From IMG/VR virus record IMGVR_UViG_2660238070_000012, positions 1 to 49,497 of that record: a stretch of 49,497 bases of DNA. One strand, 5' to 3'. Under the pieces are notes generated by a model. It saw only the letters and a list, made by a program, of their open reading frames with translations. It was not told the DNA's origin and did no database searches. Positions 1-49,497 of this stretch are shown piece after piece; position 1 is the stretch's first letter, and each line of letters starts with the position of its first letter. The translations under genes and the position numbers were made by a program. The DNA comes from a virus. Taxonomy: Duplodnaviria > Heunggongvirae > Uroviricota > Caudoviricetes.

Positions 1-1158
1 ATGCTCACCGTTAAGCAGATTGAAGCAGCAAAGCCGAAAGAAAAACCATACCGCCTACTCGATGGTAATGGCCTGTACCTTTATGTCCCTGTGTCAGGGA
101 AAAAGGTATGGCAGCTTCGCTACAAGATTGACGGTAAGGAGAAAATCCTGACCGTAGGAAAATATCCGCTAATGACTTTGCAGGAGGCAAGAGATAAAGC
201 ATGGACCGCGAGGAAAGACATCTCGGTTGGCATCGATCCGGTAAAAGCGAAAAAGGCTTCGTCTAACAACAATTCCTTTAGTGCCATTTACAAGGAATGG
301 TACGAGCACAAGAAGCAAGTCTGGTCAGTAGGCTATGCAACTGAACTTGCCAAAATGTTTGATGACGACATTTTACCCATCATCGGCGGTCTTGAGATTC
401 AGGATATTGAGCCGATGCAACTGCTGGAAGTAATCCGCAGATTTGAAGATCGCGGTGCAATGGAGCGAGCCAACAAAGCCCGCAGAAGATGCGGCGAGGT
501 TTTCCGTTACGCTATTGTCACCGGCAGGGCTAAATATAACCCGGCACCTGACCTTGCTGACGCCATGAATGGGTACCGCAAGAAGAACTTCCCGTTTCTT
601 CCTGCAGACCAGATCCCGGCATTCAATAAAGCACTGGCAACATTTTCAGGAAGTATCGTATCGCTCATTGCCACCAAGGTTTTACGCTACACTGCCCTAA
701 GAACGAAAGAGCTTCGTTCCATGCTATGGAAGAACGTCGATTTTGAAAACAGAATTATCACCATCGACGCCAATGTGATGAAGGGACGCAAAATTCATGT
801 GGTCCCGATGTCAGACCAGGTGGTTGAACTTCTCACTACGCTAAGCTCAATCACCAAACCAGTATCAGAGTTTGTTTTTGCCGGGCGCAACGATAAGAAG
901 AAGTCAATCTGCGAGAACGCGGTACTGCTTGTGATCAAACAAATCGGCTATGAAGGTCTGGAAAGCGGTCACGGATTCAGGCATGAATTCAGCACGATTA
1001 TGAACGAGCACGAATGGCCTGCTGACGCTATTGAAGTGCAACTGGCACATGCCAACGGCGGATCTGTGCGAGGGATTTACAACCATGCTCAGTATCTCGA
1101 TAAGCGCAGAGAAATGATGCAGTGGTGGGCGGACTGGATTGATGAAAAGGTGGAGTGA
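1..1158 (+). CDS. Tyrosine recombinase / phage integrase, P4/IntA-like family
   Basis: 385-aa ORF starting at the window edge. N-terminal AKPKEKPYRLLDGNGLYL motif and C-terminal GHGFRH...RGIYNHAQY catalytic region typical of tyrosine integrases. Clear paralog of the integrase at 39369-40544. Confidence 0.85.
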   Translation: MLTVKQIEAAKPKEKPYRLLDGNGLYLYVPVSGKKVWQLRYKIDGKEKILTVGKYPLMTLQEARDKAWTARKDISVGIDPVKAKKASSNNNSFSAIYKEWYEHKKQVWSVGYATELAKMFDDDILPIIGGLEIQDIEPMQLLEVIRRFEDRGAMERANKARRRCGEVFRYAIVTGRAKYNPAPDLADAMNGYRKKNFPFLPADQIPAFNKALATFSGSIVSLIATKVLRYTALRTKELRSMLWKNVDFENRIITIDANVMKGRKIHVVPMSDQVVELLTTLSSITKPVSEFVFAGRNDKKKSICENAVLLVIKQIGYEGLESGHGFRHEFSTIMNEHEWPADAIEVQLAHANGGSVRGIYNHAQYLDKRREMMQWWADWIDEKVE

Positions 1159-1302
1159 TACACCTTAACTATCGAATAGCACAAAGCCTTGCAATCCAGT
1201 GCAAAGCTTTGTGTGTCTCAGTTTTTATAAATTCTTAAGCAAGAATCATAGTTATAACTATTATGTAAATTTTATGATATATATTGTATTTAAATGCTGG
1301 TT
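1159..1302. other. AT-rich junction between convergent integrase and tailspike; candidate attachment site / boundary between two mobile elements
   Basis: 144-bp non-coding, AT-rich spacer between the stop of the integrase and the stop of the tailspike gene. Position is where a prophage att junction is expected. No repeat partner identified by eye. Confidence 0.3.
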
Positions 1303-3381
1303 TTACTTATTAACCCAACCTGTAGCATTTGTGTTGCTTTCCTTTATATAAAGTACTGTATTTCCACCTCCATCAGAACGAGTGTAAATAGAACCAACTG
1401 GTGCTCCAACTCCGCTAGATGTTGGGTTGCCTTCTTGCCCAAATATCACAAGTGAGCTTTTATCTGTAGCTTGATTATTCTGTGTGGCTGATGTTCCAAA
1501 TGAAACATTCCCTATAAATGACACGCTCTTACAGGTTGATGTAGCAAATATACCAACTGATGGTTTATTAGTTGCAATGCCATCACGAATTTGATTTGAA
1601 CTAACAATTACATTTTCTGCACCAGAGTCAATTCGTATACCATTATGGTTGTTATCTGCGGTAGAAACCCCAGCTATAATGTTTGATTGAATAGTAACAT
1701 TTGAATATTTACCATTAATATGAATCCCATGCAGGGAAATATTTCTAAAGATGTTGCTAGAAATTACAACATCATGCGAAAAACCAGACCCTATAAATTC
1801 TTCTGCATTGGTTTCAGAAATCCATAAAGAACTTGATGTTCCTGAATCGTATTCATTATTAGAGATGATTGATTTGTTAATAAAATCACCTTTGAAAAAA
1901 CCGATTCCGCCTCTTGCTGTGTTTCCAGTGACAGTTAGTCCTGAAACCCATCTTGCGTCTACTGCATATGATTGAGACTCTGTAATAAACATGGAATTGT
2001 TGGATATTACGATATCTTCATGAAATGCATCTGATGTATCTGTATATGGATATGTAGGTGCAGCAAGAAGAATCGGGGATCTAACGCCTTCAAAATAATT
2101 GCCAACAATGCGCCCCCTCCTTGCCCCCTGTGGTTTTGATGATGATGGGAATGGGGTTACATGAACTCCTCGCGCGGTACTGTTATAGAAAGAGCATCCG
2201 CTAACCACCCAATCATACCAGTTGAAAACCCTTACCCCGGCAAAGAGCATTCCATCGAACCTGCAGTTTATGACCCTTATATTTTTGTCCTGATTCCCAT
2301 ATGAATTAGCATGGTTCCCAACCCCCGCCCCCCACGCCCCAAACCCAGTGGTGGTATTTTGTGGATTTGAACCAAAATAACAGTTATCAACAAGAACATT
2401 GATGTTTGGGTAATAATCGCCAAGAGATTCAATCCCCGGATCTAACTGTATCGCTTCTGAATAATTTCGGTTGGAAAGTGGTTTGAAGCCAAGAAACTTA
2501 CAGTCTCTTATAATCACCCCTTGCCCGTCAGCAATATCTACAGCATGAAAATCGACTACATCAAGAAATGTTACTCCAACAATAGAAAGATTTCTTGGTG
2601 AGGAGGCCGCAATGATGTCAAAAGGATCTGTAGGGTGGTCTTGTCCTCCTCCATCTAGTATTCCGCCTGTTATTTTAATGTTAGTGCCAGTATTAGGGTT
2701 TATTCTCAGCATAACGTCATTAGAAAAATTACGTTTAATGGTTACGCCATCAGTCATCTTTAGGTGAGTATTTGATTTTATTTGCAACTCAGAAAGCAAA
2801 GTATATATGCCTGGTAGTGAAAACTGTAGTGTACCTCCTCCAATGCTATATATTGCATCTAGCGCAAATTGCAGAGCTACTTTATTGTCAGCATTCGATG
2901 GATGAGCACCGAAGTCAAGAACATCAATGATTTGTTGGTTCTTTTGGTGTTGAGTTTGATTTGCTGCTCCGGGGAATGGTTGTTTCACCGACACTAATTC
3001 ATCCCCATCACCATCATCAAAGGATGCCAACCTCTTCTGAAACTGATCAGGGTCATACTTCAGCACATTAGGAAAATAAAACTGCTGCGCACCACATGCA
3101 TCATAAACAGCCATAGAATGGCCTTGCACAGTTACGAATTTGGCAATCTGTCCGTTATATACTGGATACCCAGCGGCATTGATGACGATTGGCTGTGCAA
3201 CAGGAACGTGAGAACCATCTTCGTTATCAACATAGACCTGAATCTGGTTATCAGGATTTACCGGGTCAGTGTCAATTTTACCGATATAAATTTTGCCATT
3301 AGCTACGGCTTTAAAAGAACGCGCCATAGTGAAGAGTTGCGAAGGCATGCTCACTACAACATTGGCTGTAATGTCTGTCAT
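1303..3381 (-). CDS. Tailspike protein: P22 gp9-like head-binding N-terminal domain fused to a different beta-helix receptor-binding domain
   Basis: 692 aa. The first ~115 aa ([20 protein letters not shown]...[12 protein letters not shown]...NVLKYDPDQ) match the recalled P22 tailspike head-binding domain. The remainder is Gly/Asn/Ser-rich with repetitive beta-helix-like segments. Last gene of the late operon. Confidence 0.85.
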
Positions 3382-3528
3382 TTAATTTGCTCCAGATACA
3401 AGGAATCGCCGCAGCATTGCCGCAGTGATGCATTATTAATCAAAAAAATACGACCACCGTGGTCTTATTGAGGATGCAATCAGCAGATAATAAGATGCCG
3501 ATCCACTCACAAAAGCGAGGCATCAAGA

Positions 3529-3879: not shown

Positions 3880-4059
3880 ATGGCGAAAAAACCAGGTGAA
3901 AACACAGGAAAAAACGGCGGAATATACCAAGAAGTTGGCCCACGCGGCGGTAAGAAAGACAATTTTGCAACCGTCAAGGACAACGAAAGGCTTCCACCAA
4001 CAACAAAGCCAGGTCATGGCTGGGTATTGGATAAGCGAACTCCAGACAGCAAAAAGTAA
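3880..4059 (+). CDS. Hypothetical small basic protein
   Basis: 59-aa ORF from the ATG at 3880, preceded by GAGG. The longer 3865 start lacks an RBS. No recognised motif. Confidence 0.4.
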   Translation: MAKKPGENTGKNGGIYQEVGPRGGKKDNFATVKDNERLPPTTKPGHGWVLDKRTPDSKK

Positions 4060-4072
4060 TAATCAAGCCGGG

Positions 4073-4438
4073 TCACTCCGGCTTTTTGATATGTCGCTCG
4101 CAGAACTCAACAAGCCTGCTCATTAAGTAGCAGTAAGTCTCGTTGGCTCTTCCTGGTTCAACATCAACACCTACCCTTGAGCAGATATCGAATGCCATGT
4201 GAGCGCACTCATGGGCAATAGTAGATAGTTTGCCATTGAACACGCCTATCACATGCAAAACACCATTCTCGCTACTCATTGTATGAGACGCTCCGTTGGC
4301 GTCCGAGTCATGCACGTCAACGCCAAGTTTTTGATGCAGGCGTTGCCATTCTGGAAAGTCTCTACAAAACACAATTGTACCGCTCTCAAAGAGCGGAACG
4401 AGCATCTTTGGTACGTTTCCAATGTTAACTTTTTTCAT
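4073..4438 (-). CDS. Hypothetical protein with HExxH motif (possible small zinc metallopeptidase)
   Basis: 121 aa containing IAHECAHMAF (HExxH). Divergently arranged with the lipoprotein gene. Confidence 0.5.
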   Translation of the reverse strand: MKKVNIGNVPKMLVPLFESGTIVFCRDFPEWQRLHQKLGVDVHDSDANGASHTMSSENGVLHVIGVFNGKLSTIAHECAHMAFDICSRVGVDVEPGRANETYCYLMSRLVEFCERHIKKPE

Positions 4439-13682: not shown

Positions 13683-14576
13683 TTATTTTTTTGCCTTTTT
13701 AGCGGCGAAATACGGCGTCCAGTCACCAGTTTCCAGCGCCTTGGCTTTCAGTTTGTCGAGGTTATTGATTACTGCGCCGTTGCTCCCCTTAACTGTCGGG
13801 GTTGTGGCTGCCGTGGTTTTTGCTTTTGGCATGATTCTGGCCTTCGATTCGATACGTTCCAGCAGACGACCAATTGCTACGGGGTTGGTAGCTTCTGCCA
13901 GTTGCTTGCGCAGTTCAGCGTTGCGACCGAGTGCCAGAACAACGATTTCCGGCTTCTCTGACTCAAACAGGATCGCGTTTTGTGTCTCGATGGGGATTTC
14001 CTCGAGTACGGCCTGCTCAGCTTCCTGATAGCCAGGAACTTTGAGAGCCTTAACACGTTGCTGATATTTGGATAATCGCTCTTGATAGGCGGCCTGAAGC
14101 TCCTGCTCCTTCTGCTTGCGAGCCATCTCCTGTTGCTGGTACTTGCCGTTATCCTCTGCCCACTTAGCCATGCGTTGCTGATAGATTTCTTCATCGAAAC
14201 CGATGTCCTCATCATCCAGTTTTGGCATTCGCGGTGGTTGAGTGATTACCGGCTGCTGCTCGACGGGTTTCTGAGACTGACGCATCAGCTCTTTCAGCTC
14301 GCGGTCTTTCTCTTTAATCGTCTTGCGCAGGTGTTTTACCAGTCCATGCTCTGCGCTATCTTCGCTGGTTGGCGAATCCAGCTTTTCGTCACCAAAGTAG
14401 AATTCCTGTTCTGATTCGTCGTCATCAGTTTCAGTAGCTTCCTCTGCATCATTGCCGGAGGACTCACTGCCATCTTCTGTTTCGACTTCTTCAGCCAGTT
14501 CGACATCATCAGGAATCTGCTCTGACGCGTCGGTTTCGATTTCAACTTCTGGTGTGTTTTCTGCCATCTGGTCCAT
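13683..14576 (-). CDS. Scaffolding protein, P22 gp8-like
   Basis: 297 aa. Highly acidic N-terminus, charged coiled-coil middle, basic C-terminal helix-turn-helix-like tail. Between portal and coat. Confidence 0.8.
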   Translation of the reverse strand: MDQMAENTPEVEIETDASEQIPDDVELAEEVETEDGSESSGNDAEEATETDDDESEQEFYFGDEKLDSPTSEDSAEHGLVKHLRKTIKEKDRELKELMRQSQKPVEQQPVITQPPRMPKLDDEDIGFDEEIYQQRMAKWAEDNGKYQQQEMARKQKEQELQAAYQERLSKYQQRVKALKVPGYQEAEQAVLEEIPIETQNAILFESEKPEIVVLALGRNAELRKQLAEATNPVAIGRLLERIESKARIMPKAKTTAATTPTVKGSNGAVINNLDKLKAKALETGDWTPYFAAKKAKK

Positions 14577-14666
14577 TTGTTACCCCTGTTTACTCGATGT
14601 TCAGCCCATCGGAAGGCAATAGGGTGCCAGGCCTCATAAAGACAGCCATTGCACGTTATGGGTTAA

Positions 14667-38695: not shown

Positions 38696-38914
38696 ATGTA
38701 CTTCCGGGTCACAGGTGAATGGAATGGAGAGCCATTCAACAGAGTTATCGAAGCAGAGAACATCAATGACTGCTATGACCACTGGATGCTGTGGGCGCAG
38801 ATAGCACATGCAGACGTAACCAATATTCGAATTGAAGAACTGAAAAACACCAAGCCGCCTGATGGCGGTTTTTTATTGCCTGATTTGCAGGTTCGATTCC
38901 CTATTCGGAGATAG
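38696..38914 (+). CDS. Hypothetical protein
   Basis: 72-aa ORF immediately upstream of xis. Confidence 0.45.
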   Translation: MYFRVTGEWNGEPFNRVIEAENINDCYDHWMLWAQIAHADVTNIRIEELKNTKPPDGGFLLPDLQVRFPIRR

Positions 38915-38919
38915 CACTC

Positions 38920-39120
38920 ATGCAACACGAACTACAACCTGATTCACTGGTTGATTTGAAATTCATCATGGCTGATACTGGCTTTGGTAAGACCTTCATC
39001 TATGACCGGATTAAGTCCGGAGACCTGCCTAAAGCCAAAGTTATCCACGGGCGAGCAAGATGGTTATATCGTGACCATTGTGAATTCAAAAATAAGCTCT
39101 TAAGCCGCGCCAATGGGTAA
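38920..39120 (+). CDS. xis: Excisionase / AlpA-family DNA-binding protein
   Basis: 66 aa, small HTH protein (LKFIMADTGFGKTFIYDRIKSGDLPKAKVIHGRARW) directly upstream of the integrase. Confidence 0.75.
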   Translation: MQHELQPDSLVDLKFIMADTGFGKTFIYDRIKSGDLPKAKVIHGRARWLYRDHCEFKNKLLSRANG

Positions 39121-39368
39121 AATAGCGGGTAAAATATTTTTCACATCTAAAAAACACCATTCCAATCAATCCCCTGCCGCCTCAAGTAGATGTCTGCAGG
39201 GGACACCATGAACACTTCTCACTAAGTTCAATTAATTCCATAACTCACTGTTTTAACTGATATCATCTCCTTATACTCGTCCAGCAAAGTACCATTATTT
39301 CTAATGGAATCTATACATCTTTGCGTATAACATTGTGTATAACTGAGTTCGATCTTTTTTCTATACAC

Positions 39369-40544
39369 ATGCTGCTATCTGACATCCAAATAAAAAGAGC
39401 AAAACCGAAGGACAAACCCTATACGCTTAACGATGGTATGGGGCTATCACTCCTGATCGACACAGCGGGCAGTAAAGGCTGGCGTTTTCGCTATCGCTTT
39501 GCAGGTAAGCCTAAGATGATTTCCTTTGGCGTATATGGCGATGTGTCGTTGGCACAGGCACGTACCAAACGTGATGAAGCGCGTTCGATGTTAGCCAACG
39601 GGATAAACCCAAGTGAAGCCAGAAAAGCAGATAAGATTGCTTTGCAGTTCGCGCATGAGAACAGCTTTGAGTCTGTGGCCAGAGAATGGCACTCATCGAA
39701 AAAAGCCACCTGGTCAGAGGGTTATGCAAAAGAGGTTCTCAATTGTATGGAAAAGGATATTTTTCCTTTTATCGGCCAGCGCCCAATTGAGCAGATTGAA
39801 CCATTAGAACTGCTAACCGTCCTGCAAAAAATAGAGAAAAGAGGTGCGCTAGAGCAAACCAGTAAGATCCGCCGCCGCTGTGGTGAAGTGCTTCGTTATG
39901 CTGTTGCCACTGGTAGAGCAAAGTATAATTTTGCACCCGATTTAGCTATCGCACTCAACAAACCTAAAACCCAACACTTCCCGTTCCTGACTGAAAGCGA
40001 GTTGCCCGAGTTCGTTAATGCTCTGGATAACTATCAGGGCAGTTTAGTTACCAAATACGCCACGCAGCTGTTGATGCTAACAGGCGTGCGAACAATTGAA
40101 CTACGTGCAGCGGAATGGGCTGAGTTTGATTTAGATAATGCCTTATGGGAGATCCCCAAAGAACGGATGAAGAAACGCCGCCCCCATCTGGTTCCGTTAT
40201 CAACTCAGGCGATCAATATCCTGAAAAAGCTGCAAGAAATAACAGGGAATTACAGCCTCGTTTTCCCTGGCCGGAATGACGTCAGTAAACCAATGAGCGA
40301 AGCCAGCATCAACAAAGTGATAAAACTACTGGGTTATCACGGTCGGTTAACGGGTCACGGTTTCAGGCATACCATGAGCACCATCTTGCATGAGCATGGG
40401 TTTGAAAGTGCCTGGATTGAAATGCAGCTTGCGCATGTTGATAAGAACTCTATTCGAGGTACTTACAATCATGCGCAATATATTAAAGATCGACAAGTAA
40501 TGATGGAATGGTACGCTAGCTTATTAAATACGACCTGCTATTAA
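39369..40544 (+). CDS. int: Tyrosine recombinase / phage integrase, P4/IntA-like family
   Basis: 391 aa from the ATG at 39369 (MLLSDIQIKRAKPKDKPYTLNDGMGLSL...). C-terminal GHGFRH...RGTYNHAQY catalytic region. Paralogous to the integrase at 1-1158. Confidence 0.9.
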   Translation: MLLSDIQIKRAKPKDKPYTLNDGMGLSLLIDTAGSKGWRFRYRFAGKPKMISFGVYGDVSLAQARTKRDEARSMLANGINPSEARKADKIALQFAHENSFESVAREWHSSKKATWSEGYAKEVLNCMEKDIFPFIGQRPIEQIEPLELLTVLQKIEKRGALEQTSKIRRRCGEVLRYAVATGRAKYNFAPDLAIALNKPKTQHFPFLTESELPEFVNALDNYQGSLVTKYATQLLMLTGVRTIELRAAEWAEFDLDNALWEIPKERMKKRRPHLVPLSTQAINILKKLQEITGNYSLVFPGRNDVSKPMSEASINKVIKLLGYHGRLTGHGFRHTMSTILHEHGFESAWIEMQLAHVDKNSIRGTYNHAQYIKDRQVMMEWYASLLNTTCY

Positions 40545-41474
40545 ATCCAGCATGAAACAAATATGGTGAGTAATTTGATACTGTTTGTTTTTTGGCAACC
40601 CAGGGAAATGCCTTACAGTTGGTTGACTATTGTAATAATAATAGTTAAGACCAATGTTGCTGCCAAACTGGGTTGGATGTTGGGGAACAAGATTTGTAAT
40701 TTGATCTGAAACATCTAAAAATTTTGCAGTAACATTTGAACTTCCTCGTTGCGTGTTGCTTGATACAAAATGACGAATCCAAACTGTATTCGCTTGTAAA
40801 TTCTTGAACACCAAATGTGCGGCAACAGCAGAAGGTTGACCACCTCCAAGATCTAGTACCTGGCCAGTAATTGTATAATCGCCAAATCCTAAGTAATTTT
40901 GTCCCACGAATTGATGTGCGTGCGTGAAAAGTTCCGGCCCATTATAATCAGCATTTTTTGCTAACTTTCTAAAGTTATCGCTAATAATAATTAACTTCGA
41001 CAAAGGAAGAAGAGCGCACTGATTAGGAAGCATTTTATTATTTAAAACAACATGATAACTAATCAATTGATTTGTCGCCAACAACTGAATATCAGAGTTG
41101 GATAATGATGGATTATCATATAGAAGTGCAACTCGTCTATTTAAGTTAGCATTCAACCAATTATTAATATCATTAATCGTTGTATTGGGCTGAATAAGAT
41201 ATCCAGAGATGATATTATTTTTATTTGTTAATACACTTGATAAATTTTGATTTAAAGTTAAGACGTTATTGTGTGAAGAAAAATCTTCCTGATAAGGATT
41301 AAGGATAACAATTATGTCAGAATTCCAAACATTTAAACATGTTAATAAATTTCTCGTATTGACGTTAATTGGTTCTAAAATTGGTAGCAGACCATTTAGG
41401 CTAACTCCCTTCGCAACGAGGTCCCTAAGGCATAATAACTCTGTACTTCTCGCATACAAATATGGGCTATACAT
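40524..41474 (-). CDS. Hypothetical protein, second gene of an AT-rich two-gene cassette
   Basis: 316 aa, Asn/Leu/Ile-rich. Low-GC codon usage unlike the flanking prophage. 3' end overlaps the integrase stop by 21 bp convergently. Confidence 0.65.
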   Translation of the reverse strand: MYSPYLYARSTELLCLRDLVAKGVSLNGLLPILEPINVNTRNLLTCLNVWNSDIIVILNPYQEDFSSHNNVLTLNQNLSSVLTNKNNIISGYLIQPNTTINDINNWLNANLNRRVALLYDNPSLSNSDIQLLATNQLISYHVVLNNKMLPNQCALLPLSKLIIISDNFRKLAKNADYNGPELFTHAHQFVGQNYLGFGDYTITGQVLDLGGGQPSAVAAHLVFKNLQANTVWIRHFVSSNTQRGSSNVTAKFLDVSDQITNLVPQHPTQFGSNIGLNYYYYNSQPTVRHFPGLPKNKQYQITHHICFMLDLIAGRI

Positions 41475-41495
41475 AACTTACAACTCCTGAGGATA

Positions 41496-42377
41496 TCAAC
41501 AAATTTTAATTTTTACATCCATCAAATTCATGATGAATTCTTTTTGCTTTCTTGATAATGGTGTTGCATAACCTAAAACACGTAAACATGCTGGAAGAGA
41601 ATAAATATAATCCAAAAAAACTTTATCGTTACATCTTTTTTTCATAGCAGAGATAAAGTATTTATTTGCTATGTTTAATGGCATCTGCATGAATATCTCT
41701 TTACAATATTCATAAACCAATCCGTTAGGCATATTTATTTTAGTTGAAGTGTAATCTTCTATTATAGCTAAGAACTCTTCCTTTCTAAGAACTGAAAACA
41801 AGCTGTCACTTTTAATATAATCAATATTTGAATCTGCCTCCTTAATGACACTCAATTGATCTTTTTTATTCAAAACCATAACTCCCACTCTGGGGAGATT
41901 TAAAGCACAATATTTACTTGCATACTCTGGATGTGTAACTATATACACTTTATCAAAAACATCCAAATAATCAGGGGCTTGAGTAATCAACCTTTTTGGT
42001 GAATCATACTCTGTCTTAATCTCGTAAGCTGTAGACGTACCATTAAACACCGCAACATCCACTATAGAGTTTTTAATTGGTAACTCTATGGACGACGAAC
42101 TTGTTTTTGGGCTGTGCTTACCGAATATTATTTTATTGACAAGTGCTGTCTTATAAACATATTCATTTCTATAATTCAGACGCAAAAAATCATATAATGA
42201 TGTAAATAAATCCCTTAGTGAAATCTCATGTTCATTATTATCATTGTTTGAAAACAGTGTTTCATAGCAGTAAGAATCAAAACTCCCAAATAAATCCGAA
42301 ATATCCTTACCTTTTGCTAAGGATGAAAAAATGGGGCGACGGAAAAATTTAGCATATTCCTTTTTATTATGACTCAT
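41496..42377 (-). CDS. Hypothetical protein with PD-(D/E)xK-like nuclease motif, first gene of AT-rich cassette
   Basis: 293 aa. IVDVAVFNGTSTAYEIKTEYD gives D-x10-E-x-K spacing typical of restriction-endonuclease-fold nucleases. Very AT-rich. 21-bp gap to the downstream gene. Confidence 0.65.
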   Translation of the reverse strand: MSHNKKEYAKFFRRPIFSSLAKGKDISDLFGSFDSYCYETLFSNNDNNEHEISLRDLFTSLYDFLRLNYRNEYVYKTALVNKIIFGKHSPKTSSSSIELPIKNSIVDVAVFNGTSTAYEIKTEYDSPKRLITQAPDYLDVFDKVYIVTHPEYASKYCALNLPRVGVMVLNKKDQLSVIKEADSNIDYIKSDSLFSVLRKEEFLAIIEDYTSTKINMPNGLVYEYCKEIFMQMPLNIANKYFISAMKKRCNDKVFLDYIYSLPACLRVLGYATPLSRKQKEFIMNLMDVKIKIC

Positions 42378-43056
42378 TACTCATACTCTATAAACATCAT
42401 GCAATTTGATAAGTTATGACGAATTCTCACCATCCAGTTACTACCTGTACATACTAATCAAAAAAAACGAGTACGCAAGATACGAAAGTACTTTTCTTGT
42501 TCACCAGTTAGCTTACCTTGATCCTCACCAGCGACTGGAAGATAGGTAGCAGTATATGTGGAAACCTTCCCCTAGCTAGGTCTACAAACGTAGTTTGGGC
42601 ATTTAGGCTCCACGATTCACGGTTTGACACGGCCTGATATCTGCACATTCGTTTTGATATGCAGCAATCGTGAAAAAGGAAAATATACGCTCGACAGACC
42701 AAAACGGCACTACACCGCACCCGCCTGCGGTTTTCATATCACTAAAAATTTTCAGCCTGGATTTTTTACAAACGATACCGCCAGTCCGTGCCAGTCCTCG
42801 AGATGTACTGCGATACAGGAACTGAAAAGAATGAAAAGAAATTCATTTTTTTTCAGTTTTACTGTCCGTCGAATCTATGGCCTGAATACGCAACTCTATG
42901 ATATTAAATGGATAATTAATTTTAGGTGTGTGATTTTATGAAGGTTTGTGAAACATGAAGAAGATAACCAGTTGAAAAATAATAATTTTATGACCGTATA
43001 AACTGAAATCCTGTGTTCAGGTTCCGGGAACAGATCGGCCATTCCCGACGCATACT

Positions 43057-43329
43057 TTACCCATTCTTTTGCGCAGCCAGCAGCAACTTTAAAGCCTTTT
43101 CCCGTTCCTCGGGTGGAATTGCATCAATCAGCTCTTTAACCCTTCCCTGCCCGTTCAGCGCGCTTGGACTAACGGAATGGGAGAAAGCAACATTCATCAC
43201 AAACGAGTGACCGCACTCCACATTAGAGCAATAGCAGTACACATCGTACAGTTGTGGGTGTTTCCTGTTTGTTTTACCTATCCGTGCTACTGCCTGACAT
43301 GTGGGGCAGTACATTCTCATCATCTTCAT
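43057..43329 (-). CDS. Ogr/Delta-family zinc-finger late transcription activator
   Basis: 90 aa: MYCPTCQ...VYCYCSNVECGHSF gives the C-x2-C...C-x4-C pattern of P2 Ogr / P4 Delta. True start may be an internal Met. Confidence 0.7.
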   Translation of the reverse strand: MKMMRMYCPTCQAVARIGKTNRKHPQLYDVYCYCSNVECGHSFVMNVAFSHSVSPSALNGQGRVKELIDAIPPEEREKALKLLLAAQKNG

Positions 43330-43611: not shown

Positions 43612-46299
43612 TCACTCAGGTTCAGCGCTTCCCAGTACCTGTGTATTGAACTGGTACACACGTTTAAGCCCTATTTCTGGCAGGCGAATGCTGTTTTGCG
43701 TCCGGCCATCTTCACCGGGTTTCAGCCAGCCCGCGTCCACACACAACCTGGCCACCTTACGCGAGTCAAATCCCTTACAGATCTCCTTCCAGCCTGACGG
43801 GAGAACGTAGAACGTCACAACCGGCTCTGTCACGTTGTCTCCTTTATCGACTTTTCTGAATCCCATCATTGAAACAGGCCGGTTCCTGTCGTCATTCCAG
43901 TCAGCAAACCGACTGAACTGATTACGCGTCATGAAGTCCCGAACCTGTTCAAGTGCCGCTTTATCTTCCTGATTAGCTGTATGGCCCCGGTCAGCCATCC
44001 ATGCAGCCAGACAGCTTTGAGCGGCACGAAAGGCCTCTCCCTCCGGCCATCCTGTGATGCCCGCTTTTGTGGCCAGCTCCCCGGCCATCGCAACCAGAGC
44101 AAAACGGGTAACAGCCCGGCCAACCTGATTCCCGGCATTTTCCGGCGTCAGCCTTCGGGTATACTCTTTCAATAAGGCTTTCGCCTGACTGGTCAGTTCC
44201 GGCAGATCAGCGGTCAGGCAATACAGCCAGTCGCGGAATGGTGCACCATGATAATGCGCTACGTGCTGCTCAAGATGCTCAGCCAGGGTTTTCCCGCTAC
44301 TGAAGCCATGAAGTTCTTCAAACACGCCATACTTGCCCGAATCGCTTGGGATCTGGATCATTCTGACCTCAACCCCGGCATACGTACGTTCCCCGGCGCT
44401 TGCCGCATGCTCTACCAGTGACAGTTCCCCGGTAGACAGAAACAACAGATTCCAGCGGTTGGTTTCCCTTACCGAACCATCTGTTCTGGCTCTGGCTTTG
44501 CCCTGCCCGTTAGCCAGCATATAAGCGATATTTCCCGCCTCCCTGCCGTCAACCTCCCGGATTTCATCCAGCATCAGCGTGGCATCATTGCGGCGGCTCG
44601 CCGTTCCTTCTAAGGCATTCCCCGTCGCCCGCCACGTATGCCAGAAATCTGTTCCACCACATACTGATGCAGCCACTTTCATCGTCGTGGTTTTACCGTC
44701 TGTGGATTCCCCTTTGAGGTGATAACCTCCACCGCCGATACCAACCAGTTTCAGAAGGGGGGCAGCAAATGCCAGACTCACCGCAAAGGCAAGACGGGCA
44801 TTCTTTATGCAATAACGGCCTATATTTTCACGCCAGCCCTCTGATGTGCCGCTGACACGAAAATCACGCCCCTGCACACTCGATGTTTGTAAGATGACTG
44901 ACTGGGCTTCGCGCCCTATCACTTCATCCTGGAGAACGTAAACCCCGCCGTGCCAGCCAGTTTTATTCACACAGGTTACTTTTCTGTCCGGTTTACACAG
45001 CGAGATATATTCCATCAGGAATGCTCTGGCCATGCCGTTAATGTTGATGTAAGAAAGCCCGTTAACCAGCAGAACGCGGCGCAGTTCTTCCCCGCTACCG
45101 CCCAGCATCTCCATCGGCATTGCCCATTTACGGCTGTTTCCGTTGGTATCTTCCCATTCCAGCAAACGCCCGTAATTACTTCCATCAGCATCACTGGTGA
45201 TTGCCGTCACCCGCAACGGACTGCAAATTTTGATATTACGTATCTCTGTATCACCATCAGACTTATTAACCAGCTTGTCGTACCACAAATATTCTTTTGT
45301 CAGCCGGAACCCTTCTGGTAAACGGGTCTGCCCTTTGCCATGCAGCGTCATTTCTTCACGAAAGGCATCTCTCGCCCGTTCTTTCCCCACTTCCTGCCGA
45401 TAATCATCCCAGTCAGCCTTATGGCGTACCGGAGGGAGCGTTACCCAGCCATCCACCGCTTTGGCGGCTTTCTCTGCCTGAATACGCCCGGTGTTTTCTT
45501 TGCCGTCAGCCAGATCATTATCTCCGGCCAGAATGATCCGGGTTTCCGGCCAGCGTTTTCGGATCTGCTCCGTCACCTTCAGTAAATTGGTGGCAGCGAC
45601 AGCCGCCACGATCCATCCTTCAGTCAGCAGACTGACGGTAAGCGCCGTGGCAAAACCCTCAGTGATAATCACCTGTTCAGGTGTTTCAGCGGGTATATCG
45701 GTCAGGGCAATGAATGCGCCAGACAGCTGGCTACCGGGCAGCAGACTTTTATCCCCGTCAGGATTGATAAGCTGGCCACCAGTAATATTCCCGGAAATAT
45801 CCGTCAAAGGCAGCAGTAATGAACCGGTGGAAAATGTTATTCCGGCCAGATTCAAAGGCTGTGACAGCAAGGGAAGTGAATACCCGTGTAAGCTCTTATT
45901 TGTCAGATAGACCGGCTCACCATTGCAGGACTGCTGTCTGAGTCTGGTATATCGCTCCGCGCCCGCTTCTTTTCCTGCGGCCTTTTTCCTGGCTGGCAAT
46001 GCGGGCTTCTCCTGTATTTCTGGTAATGCAAGCGCCTCAGATACCATCCCGGCGACTTCTTTTATCTTTCTTCCTGTCACCAGACGAACCAGATCAAGAC
46101 CATCGCCATGACCGCACTGATTACAAAACCACGTCCCTCGCCCCGCTTTATCGTCCAGTCGAAAACGATCTTTTCCACCACAGGCAGGGCAAGCCCCATG
46201 ATGTCCTGCGGACGGTACTTTAATACCTAATGCTGACAGGATATAAGGCCAGCGCCCAATTGCAGCTCCGGAAATCGTGGATACAGACGGTGTTTTCAC
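43612..46299 (-). CDS. Primase-helicase, P4 alpha-like
   Basis: 895 aa. N-terminal zinc-binding primase motif (CPACGGKDRFR...CNQCGHGDGLD), Toprim-like region (IILAGDNDLADGKENTG), C-terminal helicase Walker A (LKGESTDGKTT). Confidence 0.85.
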   Translation of the reverse strand: MKTPSVSTISGAAIGRWPYILSALGIKVPSAGHHGACPACGGKDRFRLDDKAGRGTWFCNQCGHGDGLDLVRLVTGRKIKEVAGMVSEALALPEIQEKPALPARKKAAGKEAGAERYTRLRQQSCNGEPVYLTNKSLHGYSLPLLSQPLNLAGITFSTGSLLLPLTDISGNITGGQLINPDGDKSLLPGSQLSGAFIALTDIPAETPEQVIITEGFATALTVSLLTEGWIVAAVAATNLLKVTEQIRKRWPETRIILAGDNDLADGKENTGRIQAEKAAKAVDGWVTLPPVRHKADWDDYRQEVGKERARDAFREEMTLHGKGQTRLPEGFRLTKEYLWYDKLVNKSDGDTEIRNIKICSPLRVTAITSDADGSNYGRLLEWEDTNGNSRKWAMPMEMLGGSGEELRRVLLVNGLSYININGMARAFLMEYISLCKPDRKVTCVNKTGWHGGVYVLQDEVIGREAQSVILQTSSVQGRDFRVSGTSEGWRENIGRYCIKNARLAFAVSLAFAAPLLKLVGIGGGGYHLKGESTDGKTTTMKVAASVCGGTDFWHTWRATGNALEGTASRRNDATLMLDEIREVDGREAGNIAYMLANGQGKARARTDGSVRETNRWNLLFLSTGELSLVEHAASAGERTYAGVEVRMIQIPSDSGKYGVFEELHGFSSGKTLAEHLEQHVAHYHGAPFRDWLYCLTADLPELTSQAKALLKEYTRRLTPENAGNQVGRAVTRFALVAMAGELATKAGITGWPEGEAFRAAQSCLAAWMADRGHTANQEDKAALEQVRDFMTRNQFSRFADWNDDRNRPVSMMGFRKVDKGDNVTEPVVTFYVLPSGWKEICKGFDSRKVARLCVDAGWLKPGEDGRTQNSIRLPEIGLKRVYQFNTQVLGSAEPE

Positions 46300-46706
46300 A
46301 GCAGCACCTCCTGACCTTCCGGCTTCACAAATTCAAAACCTTCGGGTAGTTCGCCATCAGGTGCTCCGAAAATAATATCCCGGTAAACCTCACGCATCTC
46401 TGTGACACCAAAAACTGACAGGCGAATATTTTCTGACATAAAGCCTGGTTTAAGCATTTTTTCCAGTTTCTCTGCGGCCAGTATGCAACCAGCATCAGCC
46501 CCAAACTCATTCACCCACGGCATTTCAATATGGTAAATAATATTACTCACCACTTTTTCGTGGGAGAGTTCTATTCGTTCGCCATCTTCAATATAAACAG
46601 GTTCATTATGAACACGCACCATTAAGGAAATGAATGCATCAGCAATGTAGTAGCGTAAGACTGCTGTTCGTAAAGCATGCGCCTTTAAATTTTGATTATT
46701 ATTCAT
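46296..46706 (-). CDS. Hypothetical protein upstream of the primase (epsilon position)
   Basis: 136-aa ORF translationally coupled (ATGA) to the primase gene. Confidence 0.5.
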   Translation of the reverse strand: MNNNQNLKAHALRTAVLRYYIADAFISLMVRVHNEPVYIEDGERIELSHEKVVSNIIYHIEMPWVNEFGADAGCILAAEKLEKMLKPGFMSENIRLSVFGVTEMREVYRDIIFGAPDGELPEGFEFVKPEGQEVLL

Positions 46707-46935
46707 CGCGCATCACTCCCTTAATTGTGCTGGTTTCCTTAACAACGCCATCCAGTTGTTCGGCAATACAGGCCACTAAAGCCGCAGCGCCTTCCGCTGA
46801 AACAGTTCTCGCTCCATTCACTGTGGGCACGGACAAGACCTCTGCAAGAAACTCACTGGCCAGTGCCGCCCGTAACAGACGACTCTCCCCCTGTTCACTC
46901 AATATGCAGCCTTGCTTAAAATTCATGGATTTCAT
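46699..46935 (-). CDS. Hypothetical protein
   Basis: 78-aa ORF coupled to the downstream gene. Confidence 0.45.
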   Translation of the reverse strand: MKSMNFKQGCILSEQGESRLLRAALASEFLAEVLSVPTVNGARTVSAEGAAALVACIAEQLDGVVKETSTIKGVMRDE

Positions 46936-47135
46936 GCAACCACCTCCCCGGCTCTTTTCACAGGGATACGGGCAGCAAAGCTCAGGATAAATTCAGTGGC
47001 AAGTTTAAGGCGTGCAGCATGCTCGCATTCTGCGATTACACGCACAGGGCGTGGACGGGCATCACGGTCTGTACGGCGGACAGCCAGAAAGACAAAGGTA
47101 AATTCAGGGTGAGATAAAGCAGGGACTGTAGCCAT
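46932..47135 (-). CDS. Hypothetical small protein (possible DNA-binding regulator)
   Basis: 67 aa from the internal ATG at 47135 (MATVPALSHPEFTFVFLAVRRTDRDARPRPVRVIAECEHAARLKLATEF...). The longer listed ORF runs through a structured non-coding region. Confidence 0.4.
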   Translation of the reverse strand: MATVPALSHPEFTFVFLAVRRTDRDARPRPVRVIAECEHAARLKLATEFILSFAARIPVKRAGEVVA

Positions 47136-47146
47136 AATGGCAACCT

Positions 47147-47413
47147 CCTTCAGATAGCGGGTAACGCTACCACCGGAGTTCCTACGCTCATGGGTGGTAG
47201 CCCAGACGGGGGTAGGAATACCGGCTCTGAAGGATACCGGCCAGCCCGAAAGCTGCCCCGCCTGGACTACCATAATTCTGATGATGTGGCGTAAAAAATA
47301 AAAAAATACAATCAGCCACCACACCATAAATTTTAGGTGAGTCAAAGCTGCGACACAAAAAAACACGCCTAGCGCGTGTAGTATCGCCTTCAGATAACAC
47401 GGGTTCCTACGCC
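47147..47413. promoter_or_regulatory. Structured leader with two direct repeats and one inverted-complementary segment (candidate antisense-RNA control region)
   Basis: CCTTCAGATA..GGGT...TTCCTACGC occurs at 47147-47187 and 47387-47413. A partially complementary segment GTAGGAATACCGGCTCTGAAGG lies at 47212-47233. An internal hairpin GCTACCACC / GGTGGTAGC is at 47165-47201. Confidence 0.4.
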
Positions 47414-47609
47414 CGGCTGCCGATTTTGCGGCAACCTTTAAACTATATCCCGCGCATTCCTGGTGAGGCAAGAAATTTATAACCGAAAACTGATCATTGC
47501 CTGGATTAATTAACGCTGGCATGCTTAAGCCTCTGCTTAAAAATAGTTCTTCATTTTTCCTGATGCTGTAAACGAGACCCGCCTCTGAGCGGGTCTTTCT
47601 GTCGCTAAG

Positions 47610-48614
47610 TCAATCCGCAAACGTCAGGGTGCACTCATCAACAGCCGCGTACAGTTCAGGTTCACCGAGTGCATAACCTTCATTGCGCAGGTAGGAATGC
47701 ACGTATTCACTGCTTTCATCATCAAACTCAGCACGAAACCAGCGTGTTATCGCCTGAGTGTAAATATGCAGATTATCCAGCGTCGTTACTGCCAGACGCT
47801 TACCCGGCATAAACGGGGGAATAAACGCAAAGCGGCCAGCAACAGAACTTGTAGCCATCTGTGCCGCATTCACATCAGACGGGCGGTCTGCGGCATTAAA
47901 TAACTTCAGGCGTTGATGTGCTGCCAGCTCTGCCCCAACCAGTACAACCAGACGAGGATCTTCACGAAACTGCTCAGCAATAAGCTCTGTAATCAGATGG
48001 TTGGCCAGAGCATCAATATTTTTCCAGGTGCCAGTCTCTCCCAGAGTGACAGGCTCAGAGATGATTTGCTTTCCGTTCCCGTAGGCTTTCGCCAGTGCAT
48101 GCCAGCCAATATTGACATCCTCGCCTTTTTTATTGATTTCCGGGTTTGTAGTATTTGCAATCGACACACCGTTGAAACCGACCCGCAGCATGTCCAGCGC
48201 ATATGCCTGGGCAAAAAAGCTCTCAACCGTTTTCTCAAACTCATCCGGCACGCCGGTATGGTAAATATGAGACATATCGGAATAGCTGATCCGGGCGCAG
48301 GTATCCGTCTCTGTCAGAAAGAACTCCGTACCATTGATTGCCATTTTTTTGTGGAAACGGCCACCATCCACACGTCCGGTATACAGTTCACTGGCACCAA
48401 TATTGACGGCATTACCTGACACGGCGTTAACATCACGTAGGGTAATATTTTTAATAAGCCACCCGGATTCCAGAATTGAGGTACGCAGTATATTTTCAGT
48501 AGGTTCGCTTAATGCAAAGCGTCTGTTTGATTCTTCCTGATAGTTAGTGCCAGTGACGAATTTATTATGATAACGACGTGCTGCGTCCGGCCTTTCAGTT
48601 TTGAAGGCATACAT
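47610..48614 (-). CDS. Major capsid protein homolog, P2 gpN family
   Basis: 334 aa. GFNGV, GW, IDAL, EDPRLVVLVG and LDNLHIY align with recalled P2 gpN motifs (GFNGV, GW, LDAL, EDPDLVVIVG, LENLSIY). Based on recalled sequence only. Confidence 0.6.
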   Translation of the reverse strand: MYAFKTERPDAARRYHNKFVTGTNYQEESNRRFALSEPTENILRTSILESGWLIKNITLRDVNAVSGNAVNIGASELYTGRVDGGRFHKKMAINGTEFFLTETDTCARISYSDMSHIYHTGVPDEFEKTVESFFAQAYALDMLRVGFNGVSIANTTNPEINKKGEDVNIGWHALAKAYGNGKQIISEPVTLGETGTWKNIDALANHLITELIAEQFREDPRLVVLVGAELAAHQRLKLFNAADRPSDVNAAQMATSSVAGRFAFIPPFMPGKRLAVTTLDNLHIYTQAITRWFRAEFDDESSEYVHSYLRNEGYALGEPELYAAVDECTLTFAD

Positions 48615-48636
48615 AGTTTTTCACCTTTTTAAGTAT

Positions 48637-49497
48637 TTAAGAAAAGATTTTATTTTTGTACTCAGTAACCAGATTGTATTTCATTACATGCTCAACATAA
48701 TCCCGGTCACTTACGACTGAACGTAATACATAATTATCTGCTCGATAGTACTCCCTGTAAGCCATAGCTCTTGCCATTCCACCGTTATTTAATACATAAC
48801 GATCAGTTGGAACGCTACAACGACTAATAATTTCACTCACGGAATCAGATAAAGACTTGAGTGCATCAGTAATAAATTTAATATCACGGACAACGTCACT
48901 GTCATTAAATACAGAAATAAAATCAGCAGGGATCTGGCCGGATTGAGGAAATATATTCAGTAAACGCTTATCGATTCCCTTCCCAATGTAGTTTCCTTCA
49001 TCGGCCAGTACTCCCGGCAAAAGCTTGATCGTGCTCAATCGACTATGTTGTTCATTCAACCGGGAAACAGCCAGATGGTAATACCGTTCAGCATCCGCTC
49101 GTTCAGCATGCCCCATTTTATTCGTTTTGGCTTCAGCAATGCTACTGACGCCGTTTTTTGAGAATGTGCTTTTCCATGCAACTTCCGCATTTGTCACTTC
49201 ACGCTGCCGGAAAGATAACTCTTCCTCTTCCTGACGACACAACTGGGCATAACGGCTCAGGAGCAGGTTGATCTCATTCGCCACAGTTTCCGTATCAGGT
49301 ACTGTTAACCCCGTAAGTGAATACAGCTTTTCACCTTTAGCTCGCAGCTTATTCAGTGAATATATTTCAATAATACGCACAATACAGGCCGTGTCGCTAT
49401 GAGTCTCTTTAAATGATCTTACTTTGTAACTATCTAACACCGACACATGTTCGTTCTTAATTGATGCCAATTTCTTCTTAAAAACATTGTCAACCAT
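48637..49497 (-). CDS. Hypothetical protein (start coincides with window end)
   Basis: 286-aa ORF upstream of and co-oriented with the capsid homolog. Does not resemble recalled P2 gpO scaffold. May be N-terminally truncated by the window. Confidence 0.5.
   Translation of the reverse strand: MVDNVFKKKLASIKNEHVSVLDSYKVRSFKETHSDTACIVRIIEIYSLNKLRAKGEKLYSLTGLTVPDTETVANEINLLLSRYAQLCRQEEEELSFRQREVTNAEVAWKSTFSKNGVSSIAEAKTNKMGHAERADAERYYHLAVSRLNEQHSRLSTIKLLPGVLADEGNYIGKGIDKRLLNIFPQSGQIPADFISVFNDSDVVRDIKFITDALKSLSDSVSEIISRCSVPTDRYVLNNGGMARAMAYREYYRADNYVLRSVVSDRDYVEHVMKYNLVTEYKNKIFS

Follow-up and report, generated by a model that had tools for sequence, protein, structure and literature searches.

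The work on the prophage KplE1 has described a recombination module composed of the integrase IntS, TorI and a 16-nt core, CTGCAGGGGACACCAT (published for KplE1 in PMC2951348), and this module is conserved in the phages HK620, Sf6 and CUS-3 (Panis et al., PLoS Genet 2010, PMC2951348; Viruses 2012, PMC3509656). In the KplE1/HK620 module IntS binds to the core and to arm sites, TorI directs excision, and intS is transcribed from, and autoregulated at, a promoter located inside attL (PMC2951348; PMC3509656). P4-like satellites, on their part, are defined by seven components, namely int, psu, delta, sid, alpA, epsilon and alpha (PMC8628076).

According to the annotation of their records, the free genomes of Sf6 and HK620 carry the early-left genes, the gene of a 66-aa TorI homolog (gene 18 and hkaC, respectively), the attP core, int, an O-antigen gene and a convergent tailspike gene, in this order; the O-antigen slot is occupied by oac in Sf6 and by an O-antigen modification gene in HK620. 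Because attP has the excisionase gene on one side and int on the other, int comes to lie next to the tailspike gene upon integration, and the excisionase gene stays at the other end of the prophage. In lambda and P22 int is found opposite the tailspike end and reads outward.

Here we analysed a 49,497-nucleotide stretch of DNA (IMG/VR record IMGVR_UViG_2660238070_000012, positions 1 to 49,497, called the window below), which harbours two integrase genes. Our data make it very probable that, in an E. coli chromosome of the ST131 type, the interval from yfdC to dsdC contains two independent integrative elements arranged head-to-tail at the argW 3' end, and that a phage has integrated into the argW core beside a resident island.

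Results

Genomic context of the window

The flanks outside the window were read from the E. coli O25b:H4-ST131 strain 4993. Both segment 1-3400 and segment 38300-43700 match the O25b:H4-ST131 strains 4993 and MB1159 with 100% identity; in strain 4993 there is a 933-bp offset between the two segments, the window coming perhaps from a sister genome or differing by an indel inside the prophage. The order of genes in strain 4993, from left to right, is yfdC, tRNA-Arg (argW), intS, the tailspike gene with the prophage body, torI and int2, and to the right of int2 there follow sce7725, sce7726, an Ogr/Delta gene, a DUF927 primase gene, an Icd-like gene (Ash family in Pfam), a P2-family capsid gene, a hypothetical gene, an HTH gene (AlpA) and dsdC. 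Host genes begin about 310 bp to the left of the window, beyond argW, and nothing mobile is located to the left of intS in this strain.

The features of the prophage and of its right boundary are the following (positions of the window, strand, description):

1-1158, plus: intS, 385 aa, inward-reading integrase gene at the argW (attL) end of the P22-like (HK620/Sf6/CUS-3-type) prophage
1159-1302, no strand: int-tailspike intergenic region, internal phage DNA between convergent genes, the O-antigen slot in Sf6/HK620
1303-3381, minus: P22-type tailspike, last late gene (Pfam Head_binding 1.3e-65 and Beta_helix; RefSeq phage tailspike protein)
3382-38884, no single strand: P22-like prophage body, late, lysis and replication genes on the minus strand, immunity and early-left genes on the plus strand (ORF layout)
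38885-38900, plus: 16 nt identical to the argW T-arm, TTGCAGGTTCGATTCC, located 19 nt before torI
38920-39120, plus: torI, excisionase (recombination directionality factor, RDF) of the IntS module, at the prophage end opposite to intS
39121-39193, plus: phage P arm of att, 2 differences from the HK620/Sf6 attP left arm over the aligned ~39148-39193
39194-39209, plus: 16-nt att core CTGCAGGGGACACCAT, attR of the prophage and at the same time attL of the island, hybrid junction
39210-39368, plus: island arm (S') and region upstream of the island integrase gene, identical to the post-argW sequence of strain SK1144

The two integrases

Both integrase genes are full-length and, as the initial annotation had it, co-oriented on the plus strand. 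Their paralogy, also claimed there from the similar N- and C-termini, was confirmed in a pairwise protein comparison (45% identity over 387 aa, E=1e-123). The N-termini read AAKPKEKPY in the product of 1-1158 and RAKPKDKPY in that of 39369-40544, Pfam recognized Arm-DNA-bind_3, Phage_int_M and Phage_integrase in both, and the HGFRH...LAH...RG(I/T)YNHAQY region and the LRT.ELR motif are kept in the alignment. Each protein has the arm-binding N-terminal, central and catalytic domains of the P4-type tyrosine recombinases, together with the R...HxxR...H...Y residues, which we take to be the catalytic ones on the basis of general knowledge of the family.

Over 385 aa the product of the left gene shares 98% of its residues with HK620 Int, and at the DNA level intS shares 95.6-96.9% identity with int of the P22-like phages HK620, Sf6, CUS-3, Kapi1, IME10 and phiv205-1, as well as of HK633 and others. 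In strain 4993, which is identical over 1-3400, the RefSeq name of the gene is intS, and tRNA-Arg lies 161 bp upstream on the same strand. This position downstream of tRNA-Arg, in the same orientation, corresponds to the geometry of the IntS module, the predicted attL promoter region falling outside the window. The expression of intS would depend on the attL promoter because the int gene of the prophage is severed from the early-left transcript. The layout of the window also matches the integration product of HK620/Sf6: intS abuts the tailspike gene and torI is found at the far end. Judged by its homology and position, intS is the own integrase of the P22-like prophage and does not belong to another element on the left. 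The initial annotation had put this gene outside the prophage, past an AT-rich spacer of 144 bp; the spacer has indeed this length and a GC content of 28% (vs 47% for the whole window), but the integrase lies inside the prophage.

The other half of the module is equally recognizable. All 66 residues of the torI product were aligned with the 'Tor inhibition protein' (PDB 1Z4H, E=6.6e-43), the RefSeq name is torI, PHROG 66 (excisionase) gave a match, and the positional counterparts are hkaC and gene 18 mentioned above. The end of torI is separated from the core by 73 bp, so the RDF gene is adjacent to attR. The counterpart in HK620 of the T-arm copy at 38885-38900 falls in the annotated region of a cII-activated 'phage integration' promoter.

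Between the two ends, the RefSeq annotation of the prophage body in strain 4993 lists RecT, ead/Ea22-like and antirepressor genes. The phages E212, CUS-3, Kapi1 and phiv205-1, to which its late region is closest, match ~50-57% of 1303-26000 at ~95% identity, and no single phage covers more than 57% of this region. The prophage of strain 4993 contains damaged small genes, at least one by a frameshift and one by truncation.

The spacer between intS and the tailspike gene

The initial annotation had located a shared att core in the spacer at 1159-1302 and proposed a search for repeats between it and 40545-43056. In the search for repeats of 7-16 nt the longest exact matches of the spacer to 40545-43056, to 38700-39368 and to the argW flank were of 8-10 nt only, a length reached by shuffled spacers in 84-98% of the trials; no att-like repeat connects the two regions, and the shared core lies in neither of them, being at 39194-39209 and in both outside flanks. 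The same 144 bp, together with the last 60-84 bp of intS, escort this tailspike gene in P22-like prophages integrated at dacD-sbmC and at ybhB-bioA. Since the spacer travels with the tailspike gene to other loci, it is internal phage DNA at a mosaic boundary and, by these comparisons, not an att junction. In the alignment its first ~45 nt past the int stop codon are common with HK620, whose record annotates a terminator of the int/excision transcript there. A consensus scan of 1100-1400 for promoters and terminators gave nothing, the homology with the HK620 terminator being visible by alignment only.

Attachment cores and junctions at argW

The core CTGCAGGGGACACCAT matches once in the window, at 39194-39209, and there are three copies of it in total, the other two being read from strain 4993: one as the 3'-terminal part of argW (window-equivalent about -175 to -160) and another beside dsdC (window-equivalent about 50188-50203, about 690 bp to the right of the window). 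The copy at 39194-39209 does not differ from those at the argW 3' end and on the dsdC side, nor from the attP cores of HK620 and Sf6.

The nature of the three junctions was established by the alignment of six junctions. The argW junction consists of the tRNA sequence, the core and the HK620/Sf6 P' arm; the middle junction (39148-39260) of the HK620/Sf6 P arm, the core and the post-argW arm of SK1144; and the dsdC junction of the island arm, the core and host DNA. Taken together, the arms of the prophage attL and attR rebuild the phage attP (P-O-P'). The repeat shared by the island and argW is somewhat longer than the core, it reaches 20 nt. The initial annotation had seen no tRNA-like sequence: ARAGORN likewise detected no tRNA gene in the window, but two 16-nt pieces of argW are present, at 38885-38900 and 39194-39209. 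Its broader idea, that two elements with related integrases are inserted at one site, was borne out by this tandem at argW with a shared direct-repeat core.

The island to the right of the prophage

The second element contains the following features within the window:

39369-40544, plus: island integrase (Int2), 391 aa, of a P4-related island, 45% identical to IntS
40524-42377, minus: accessory pair of the sce7725/sce7726 families, beside the island integrase gene (RefSeq names)
43057-43329, minus: Ogr/Delta-like zinc-finger late-gene activator (Pfam Ogr_Delta 5.1e-14; PHROG 603)
43612-46299, minus: P4 alpha-like primase-helicase (Pfam Zn_Ribbon_Prim, Toprim_3 and DUF927; PHROG 1139, DNA primase, 4.5e-185)
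46296-49497, minus: remaining island genes in the window, two small ORFs included (ORF list)
46932-47522, minus: Ash-family gene (Pfam Phage_ASH 3.1e-32), region with 71% DNA identity to the cI/ash region of P4
47610-48614, minus: full-length P2-family major capsid gene (Pfam Phage_cap_P2 9.5e-67)
48637-49497, minus: 286-aa ORF before the capsid gene, no family match

In strain 4993 the island extends about 700 bp beyond the window, with an AlpA gene (Pfam 5.2e-20) and then the third core. Its organization mirrors that of the phage, int being proximal to argW and the putative RDF of the AlpA family distal. A distant relationship links AlpA to TorI (27% identity over 51 aa, pairwise E 2e-5).

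The ownership of Int2 is revealed by strain SK1144, in which the order is yfdC, argW, WP_000926944.1, sce7725, sce7726, Ogr/Delta, DUF927 and further genes up to HTH and dsdC, without the P22-like prophage. WP_000926944.1, which is the same protein as Int2, is encoded here 160 bp downstream of argW, and the SK1144 island has a core at each of its ends, 11.0 kb apart. Since the same protein is encoded next to argW in a strain that lacks the prophage, the integrase gene at 39369-40544, described in the initial annotation as that of the prophage, can be assigned with confidence to a P4-related island of ~11 kb that follows the prophage on its right. A search of 50,697 phage records gave no close full-length counterpart of Int2: integrases of the IntS type, with 45-47% identity, head the full-length matches, and matches at 60-80% identity occur in 3 of the 1017 matching phage records.

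From the P4-like set of components the island possesses an integrase, a delta-like activator, an alpha-like primase and alpA, the last one read in strain 4993. Psu, sid and epsilon were not detected among the island ORFs (Pfam was run on all annotated ORFs, PHROGs on most of them, with no dedicated Sid profile), and there is no room for additional genes; therefore the island is described here as P4-related, short of the seven-component definition. It may still code for a very divergent Sid, for example in the 286-aa ORF. The adjacency of int and alpha across att in the circular form is not seen either: two small ORFs, the Ash-family gene, the capsid gene, the 286-aa ORF and alpA intervene between the primase gene and the distal att.

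Some functional candidates were also considered in this region. The genes at 40524-42377 might have been O-antigen (gtr) genes of the phage, with att beyond them; this was rejected, they belong to the sce7725/sce7726 families and are present in the island-only strains. PADLOC matched the sce7726 protein (PDLC02989, 1.2e-18) and gave no match for sce7725, and neither protein is in any Pfam family. A defence function of the pair was not adopted on this single PADLOC match, the literature search having given no useful result. The 286-aa ORF was discarded as a GpO-like scaffold as well, with no Pfam or PHROG match and no tblastn match in the 50,697 phage records.

States of the site among E. coli genomes

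The empty site, a comparison suggested in the initial annotation, was built in silico by joining the two flanks, that of argW and that of dsdC, at the core (825 bp). The construct yfdC-argW-core-dsdC is found uninterrupted, with 100% identity over the 825 bp, in many genomes, O25:H4 strains included, and at least 80% of it is covered in one place in 911 of 5,426 genomes. The island alone is common in ST131 genomes. A 301-bp probe over the middle junction was fully covered in 13 genomes only. Empty, island-only and tandem states of the site all exist in E. coli genomes.

The middle junction can also be dissected by the genomes that contain only one of its halves. Elsewhere the matches from the torI side stop at 39209-39218, and the matches from the island side, which overlap tRNA-Arg, start at 39194; consequently the two halves overlap by exactly the 16-nt core.

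Discussion

On the basis of these comparisons the structure and the formation of the locus can be outlined as follows. Element 1 is a P22-like prophage of ~39.4 kb, reaching from the argW core (about 160-175 bp to the left of position 1) to 39194-39209, and element 2 a P4-related island of ~11.0 kb, reaching from the core at 39194-39209 to the dsdC-side core. The recombination module of element 1 is of the HK620/Sf6/KplE1 type, with the order torI(xis)-attP-int in the free form and the tailspike gene convergent on int; integration at the attP core splits torI from intS, so that intS gets to the argW side and torI beside attR. The island was probably resident first, and the phage probably entered second, through recombination by IntS into the intact core copy at argW. 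The second integration would have given rise to the hybrid middle junction of phage P arm, core and island arm. The many island-only genomes of ST131 point to the phage as most likely the later arrival; this order is read from how the states are spread over genomes rather than from a phylogeny.

It follows from the same scheme how the elements might leave the chromosome. Recombination of cores 1 and 2 by IntS and TorI would release the 39.4-kb phage and restore the island-only junction, and recombination of cores 2 and 3 by Int2, perhaps with AlpA, would excise the island. IntS/TorI and Int2/AlpA, two pairs whose integrases are 45% and whose RDFs 27% identical, share the argW core, and we see a slight chance that they cross-talk, in the sense that phage induction would co-excise the island via cores 1 and 3, or that Int2 would act on the hybrid junction. 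If this were true, the mobility of a satellite with a P2-type capsid gene would be tied to an unrelated podovirus. In all HK620-type phages torI stands between two separated pieces of argW, the T-arm and the core, and this split could record how the RDF gene was once captured into attP in such a tandem state.

Two other explanations of the locus have to be weighed. Int2 could be regarded, as in the initial annotation, as the integrase of the P22-like prophage, with 1-1158 belonging to another element past the tailspike end and the 144-bp spacer serving as the shared att junction; the gene at 39369-40544, on the plus strand after the early-left genes, does fit superficially the lambda/P22 layout, and the two integrases are paralogous. 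To the left of the window there is no such element, only argW and then, from about 310 bp, host genes. The spacer carries no att-like repeats and moves with the tailspike gene to other loci, of the HK620 attP arms one borders intS and the other torI, Int2 adjoins argW in strains free of the prophage, and phage records offer no close full-length match to it (among those listed the best are of IntS type at 45-47%, and three records reach 60-80%). Against all these observations this assignment is scarcely credible.

The other explanation concerns the history of the prophage: intS, attL, torI and attR would be the remains of an older, KplE1-like cryptic prophage, and the P22-like structural and early genes would have been gained later by homologous recombination with an infecting relative rather than by a new site-specific integration, which would make the prophage a rescued mosaic. 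P22-like phages are highly mosaic, the module of tailspike gene, spacer and 3' remnant of intS occurs in prophages at other loci, the coverage of 1303-26000 by a single phage never exceeds 57%, and KplE1-type remnants are common at argW, with torI/attR halves in many genomes. However, in length (39.4 kb) and gene order the element equals an intact HK620/Sf6-type genome, and in the close ST131 relatives only the island is present, joined cleanly to the argW core and free of any KplE1 remnant. On these grounds a fresh integration is the simpler assumption, and we consider the later acquisition of the P22-like genes highly improbable. Both histories lead to an identical present structure and to the same assignment of the integrases. 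We retain the fresh integration of a complete phage beside the resident island as the preferred reading.

The main value of the present analysis lies in the correct annotation. HK620/Sf6/KplE1-type prophages keep their integrase beside the tailspike gene and the excisionase at the other end, and a lambda-style expectation mislabels the phage integrase as foreign and adopts that of the neighbour instead. Such a misassignment would shift the bounds of the prophage by about 1.3 kb on one side and by at least 1.3 kb on the other, and would hide the 11-kb satellite-like island. The empty, island-only and tandem series at argW in ST131 is also usable for studying how diverged integrases work on one tRNA core.

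Comparison with known systems

The arrangement as such is an ordinary textbook case that has been described before: a published recombination module stands beside a common satellite-like island. With HK620, Sf6, CUS-3 and KplE1 (CPS-53) the prophage shares the integrase, TorI, the 16-nt core and near-identical P and P' arms; int adjoins argW and reads inward, the RDF gene is at the far end, and the chromosomal site, yfdC-argW...dsdC, is the same. It differs from HK620 and Sf6 in lacking an O-antigen gene between int and the tailspike gene, where there are 144 bp only, and from the KplE1/HK620 module in that its attR abuts a second integrative element instead of dsdC-side host DNA. The receptor-binding part of its tailspike is unlike those of the sequenced phages in the collection.

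The island resembles P4 and the P4-like satellites (Moura de Sousa and Rocha 2021, PMC8628076; Rousset et al. 2022, PMC9122126) in its size of ~11 kb, in its insertion at a tRNA gene and in having a P4-type integrase beside a variable accessory slot, and further in its Ogr/Delta-like activator, its alpha-like Zn-ribbon/Toprim/DUF927 primase, its AlpA and its Ash-family gene. In contrast to P4, the primase gene is not at the end opposite to int, a full-length P2-family capsid gene is present, and the insertion is at argW rather than at leuX.

Finally, the locus agrees with the tandem arrays described at tRNA genes, with its shared core from the tRNA 3' end, its three direct repeats and its hybrid middle junction, and with the newcomer inserted next to the intact tRNA gene, ahead of the resident element. 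Compared with such arrays nothing is unusual in it; the two integrases are only 45% identical here, yet they share the same 16-nt core.

The two ends of the prophage

A partial copy of the tRNA gene argW, into whose 3' end the P22-like prophage is integrated, was recognized beside the excisionase gene torI. It consists of the 16-nt T-arm sequence TTGCAGGTTCGATTCC, which is matched exactly at the following positions:

window 38885-38900: argW T-arm copy
HK620 (L004) 1692-1677: the same 16 nt
Sf6 (L003) 3016-3031: the same 16 nt

In the window torI lies 19 nt downstream of this copy, which is preceded by a hairpin and a T-run, and in HK620 and Sf6 the copy is kept within the annotated cII-dependent integration promoter region. 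Within argW itself the T-arm 16-mer and the 16-nt att core share one base; in the phages 293 bp separate the two, with torI in between. The arrangement looks like the outcome of a torI segment inserting into a formerly unbroken 31-nt stretch copied from the 3' end of argW.

At the other end of the prophage, the 3'-terminal part of the integrase gene intS and the 144-bp spacer between intS and the tailspike gene form a block that is also found in two P22-like prophages at other loci:

window 1075-1302: intS 3' end and spacer
L007 (comparison prophage) 3980-4208: the same block
L008 (comparison prophage) 4001-4228: the same block

At these dacD-sbmC and ybhB-bioA sites the tailspike gene is joined by the entire spacer and by the last 60-84 bp of intS, a piece that in one of the two prophages is carried in RefSeq as a truncated hypothetical gene. 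Since the intS tail and the spacer accompany the same tailspike at other loci, they mark a mosaic exchange boundary inside the int 3' end. Copies of the full tailspike gene with 97-98% identity occur at other loci in many E. coli genomes, including ST131. Phage matches start only at about 3039, with the head-binding domain; nothing in the phage collection matched the receptor-binding part (1303 to about 3038) at an identity of about 85% or higher. The tailspike may be O25b-specific.

The stretch 3400-38300, lying between two 100%-identical segments, was compared with NZ_CP103557.1. Because the offsets of these segments differ by 933 bp in strain 4993 and by 2,918 bp in MB1159, either the window has indels relative to both assemblies at some point within the prophage, or it stems from another strain.

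The P4-related island

The following features were located in the island to the right of the prophage:

40524-42377: sce7725/sce7726 gene pair, in a variable slot adjoining the island integrase gene
47610-49497: full-length P2-family major capsid gene (Pfam 9.5e-67), preceded by a 286-aa ORF
about 50005-50075 (window-equivalent, outside the window; L002, the strain 4993 side of the third att core, about 14570-14640): GGGCT/GGGCTG-type repeat run

The repeat run, of about 11 tandem units, is located within the island close to its distal end, some 110 bp short of the third core.

The 286-aa ORF had no Pfam or PHROG match and no tblastn match among phages. Together with this ORF, a full-length P2-family capsid gene in an island with no detectable sid or psu is unusual for a P4-type satellite, and the gene set could point to another means of capsid production or resizing.

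Convergent with the island integrase gene, sce7725 shares 21 bp with the 3' end of that gene. In PADLOC only sce7726 of the pair was matched (candidate model PDLC02989, 1.2e-18). RefSeq annotates no gene in the 680 bp from sce7726 to ogr (42378-43056), where a 105-aa ORF at 42624-42941 gave only a marginal match, to SduA. The sce7725/sce7726 slot occupies the same position as the defence hotspot of P4-like satellites.
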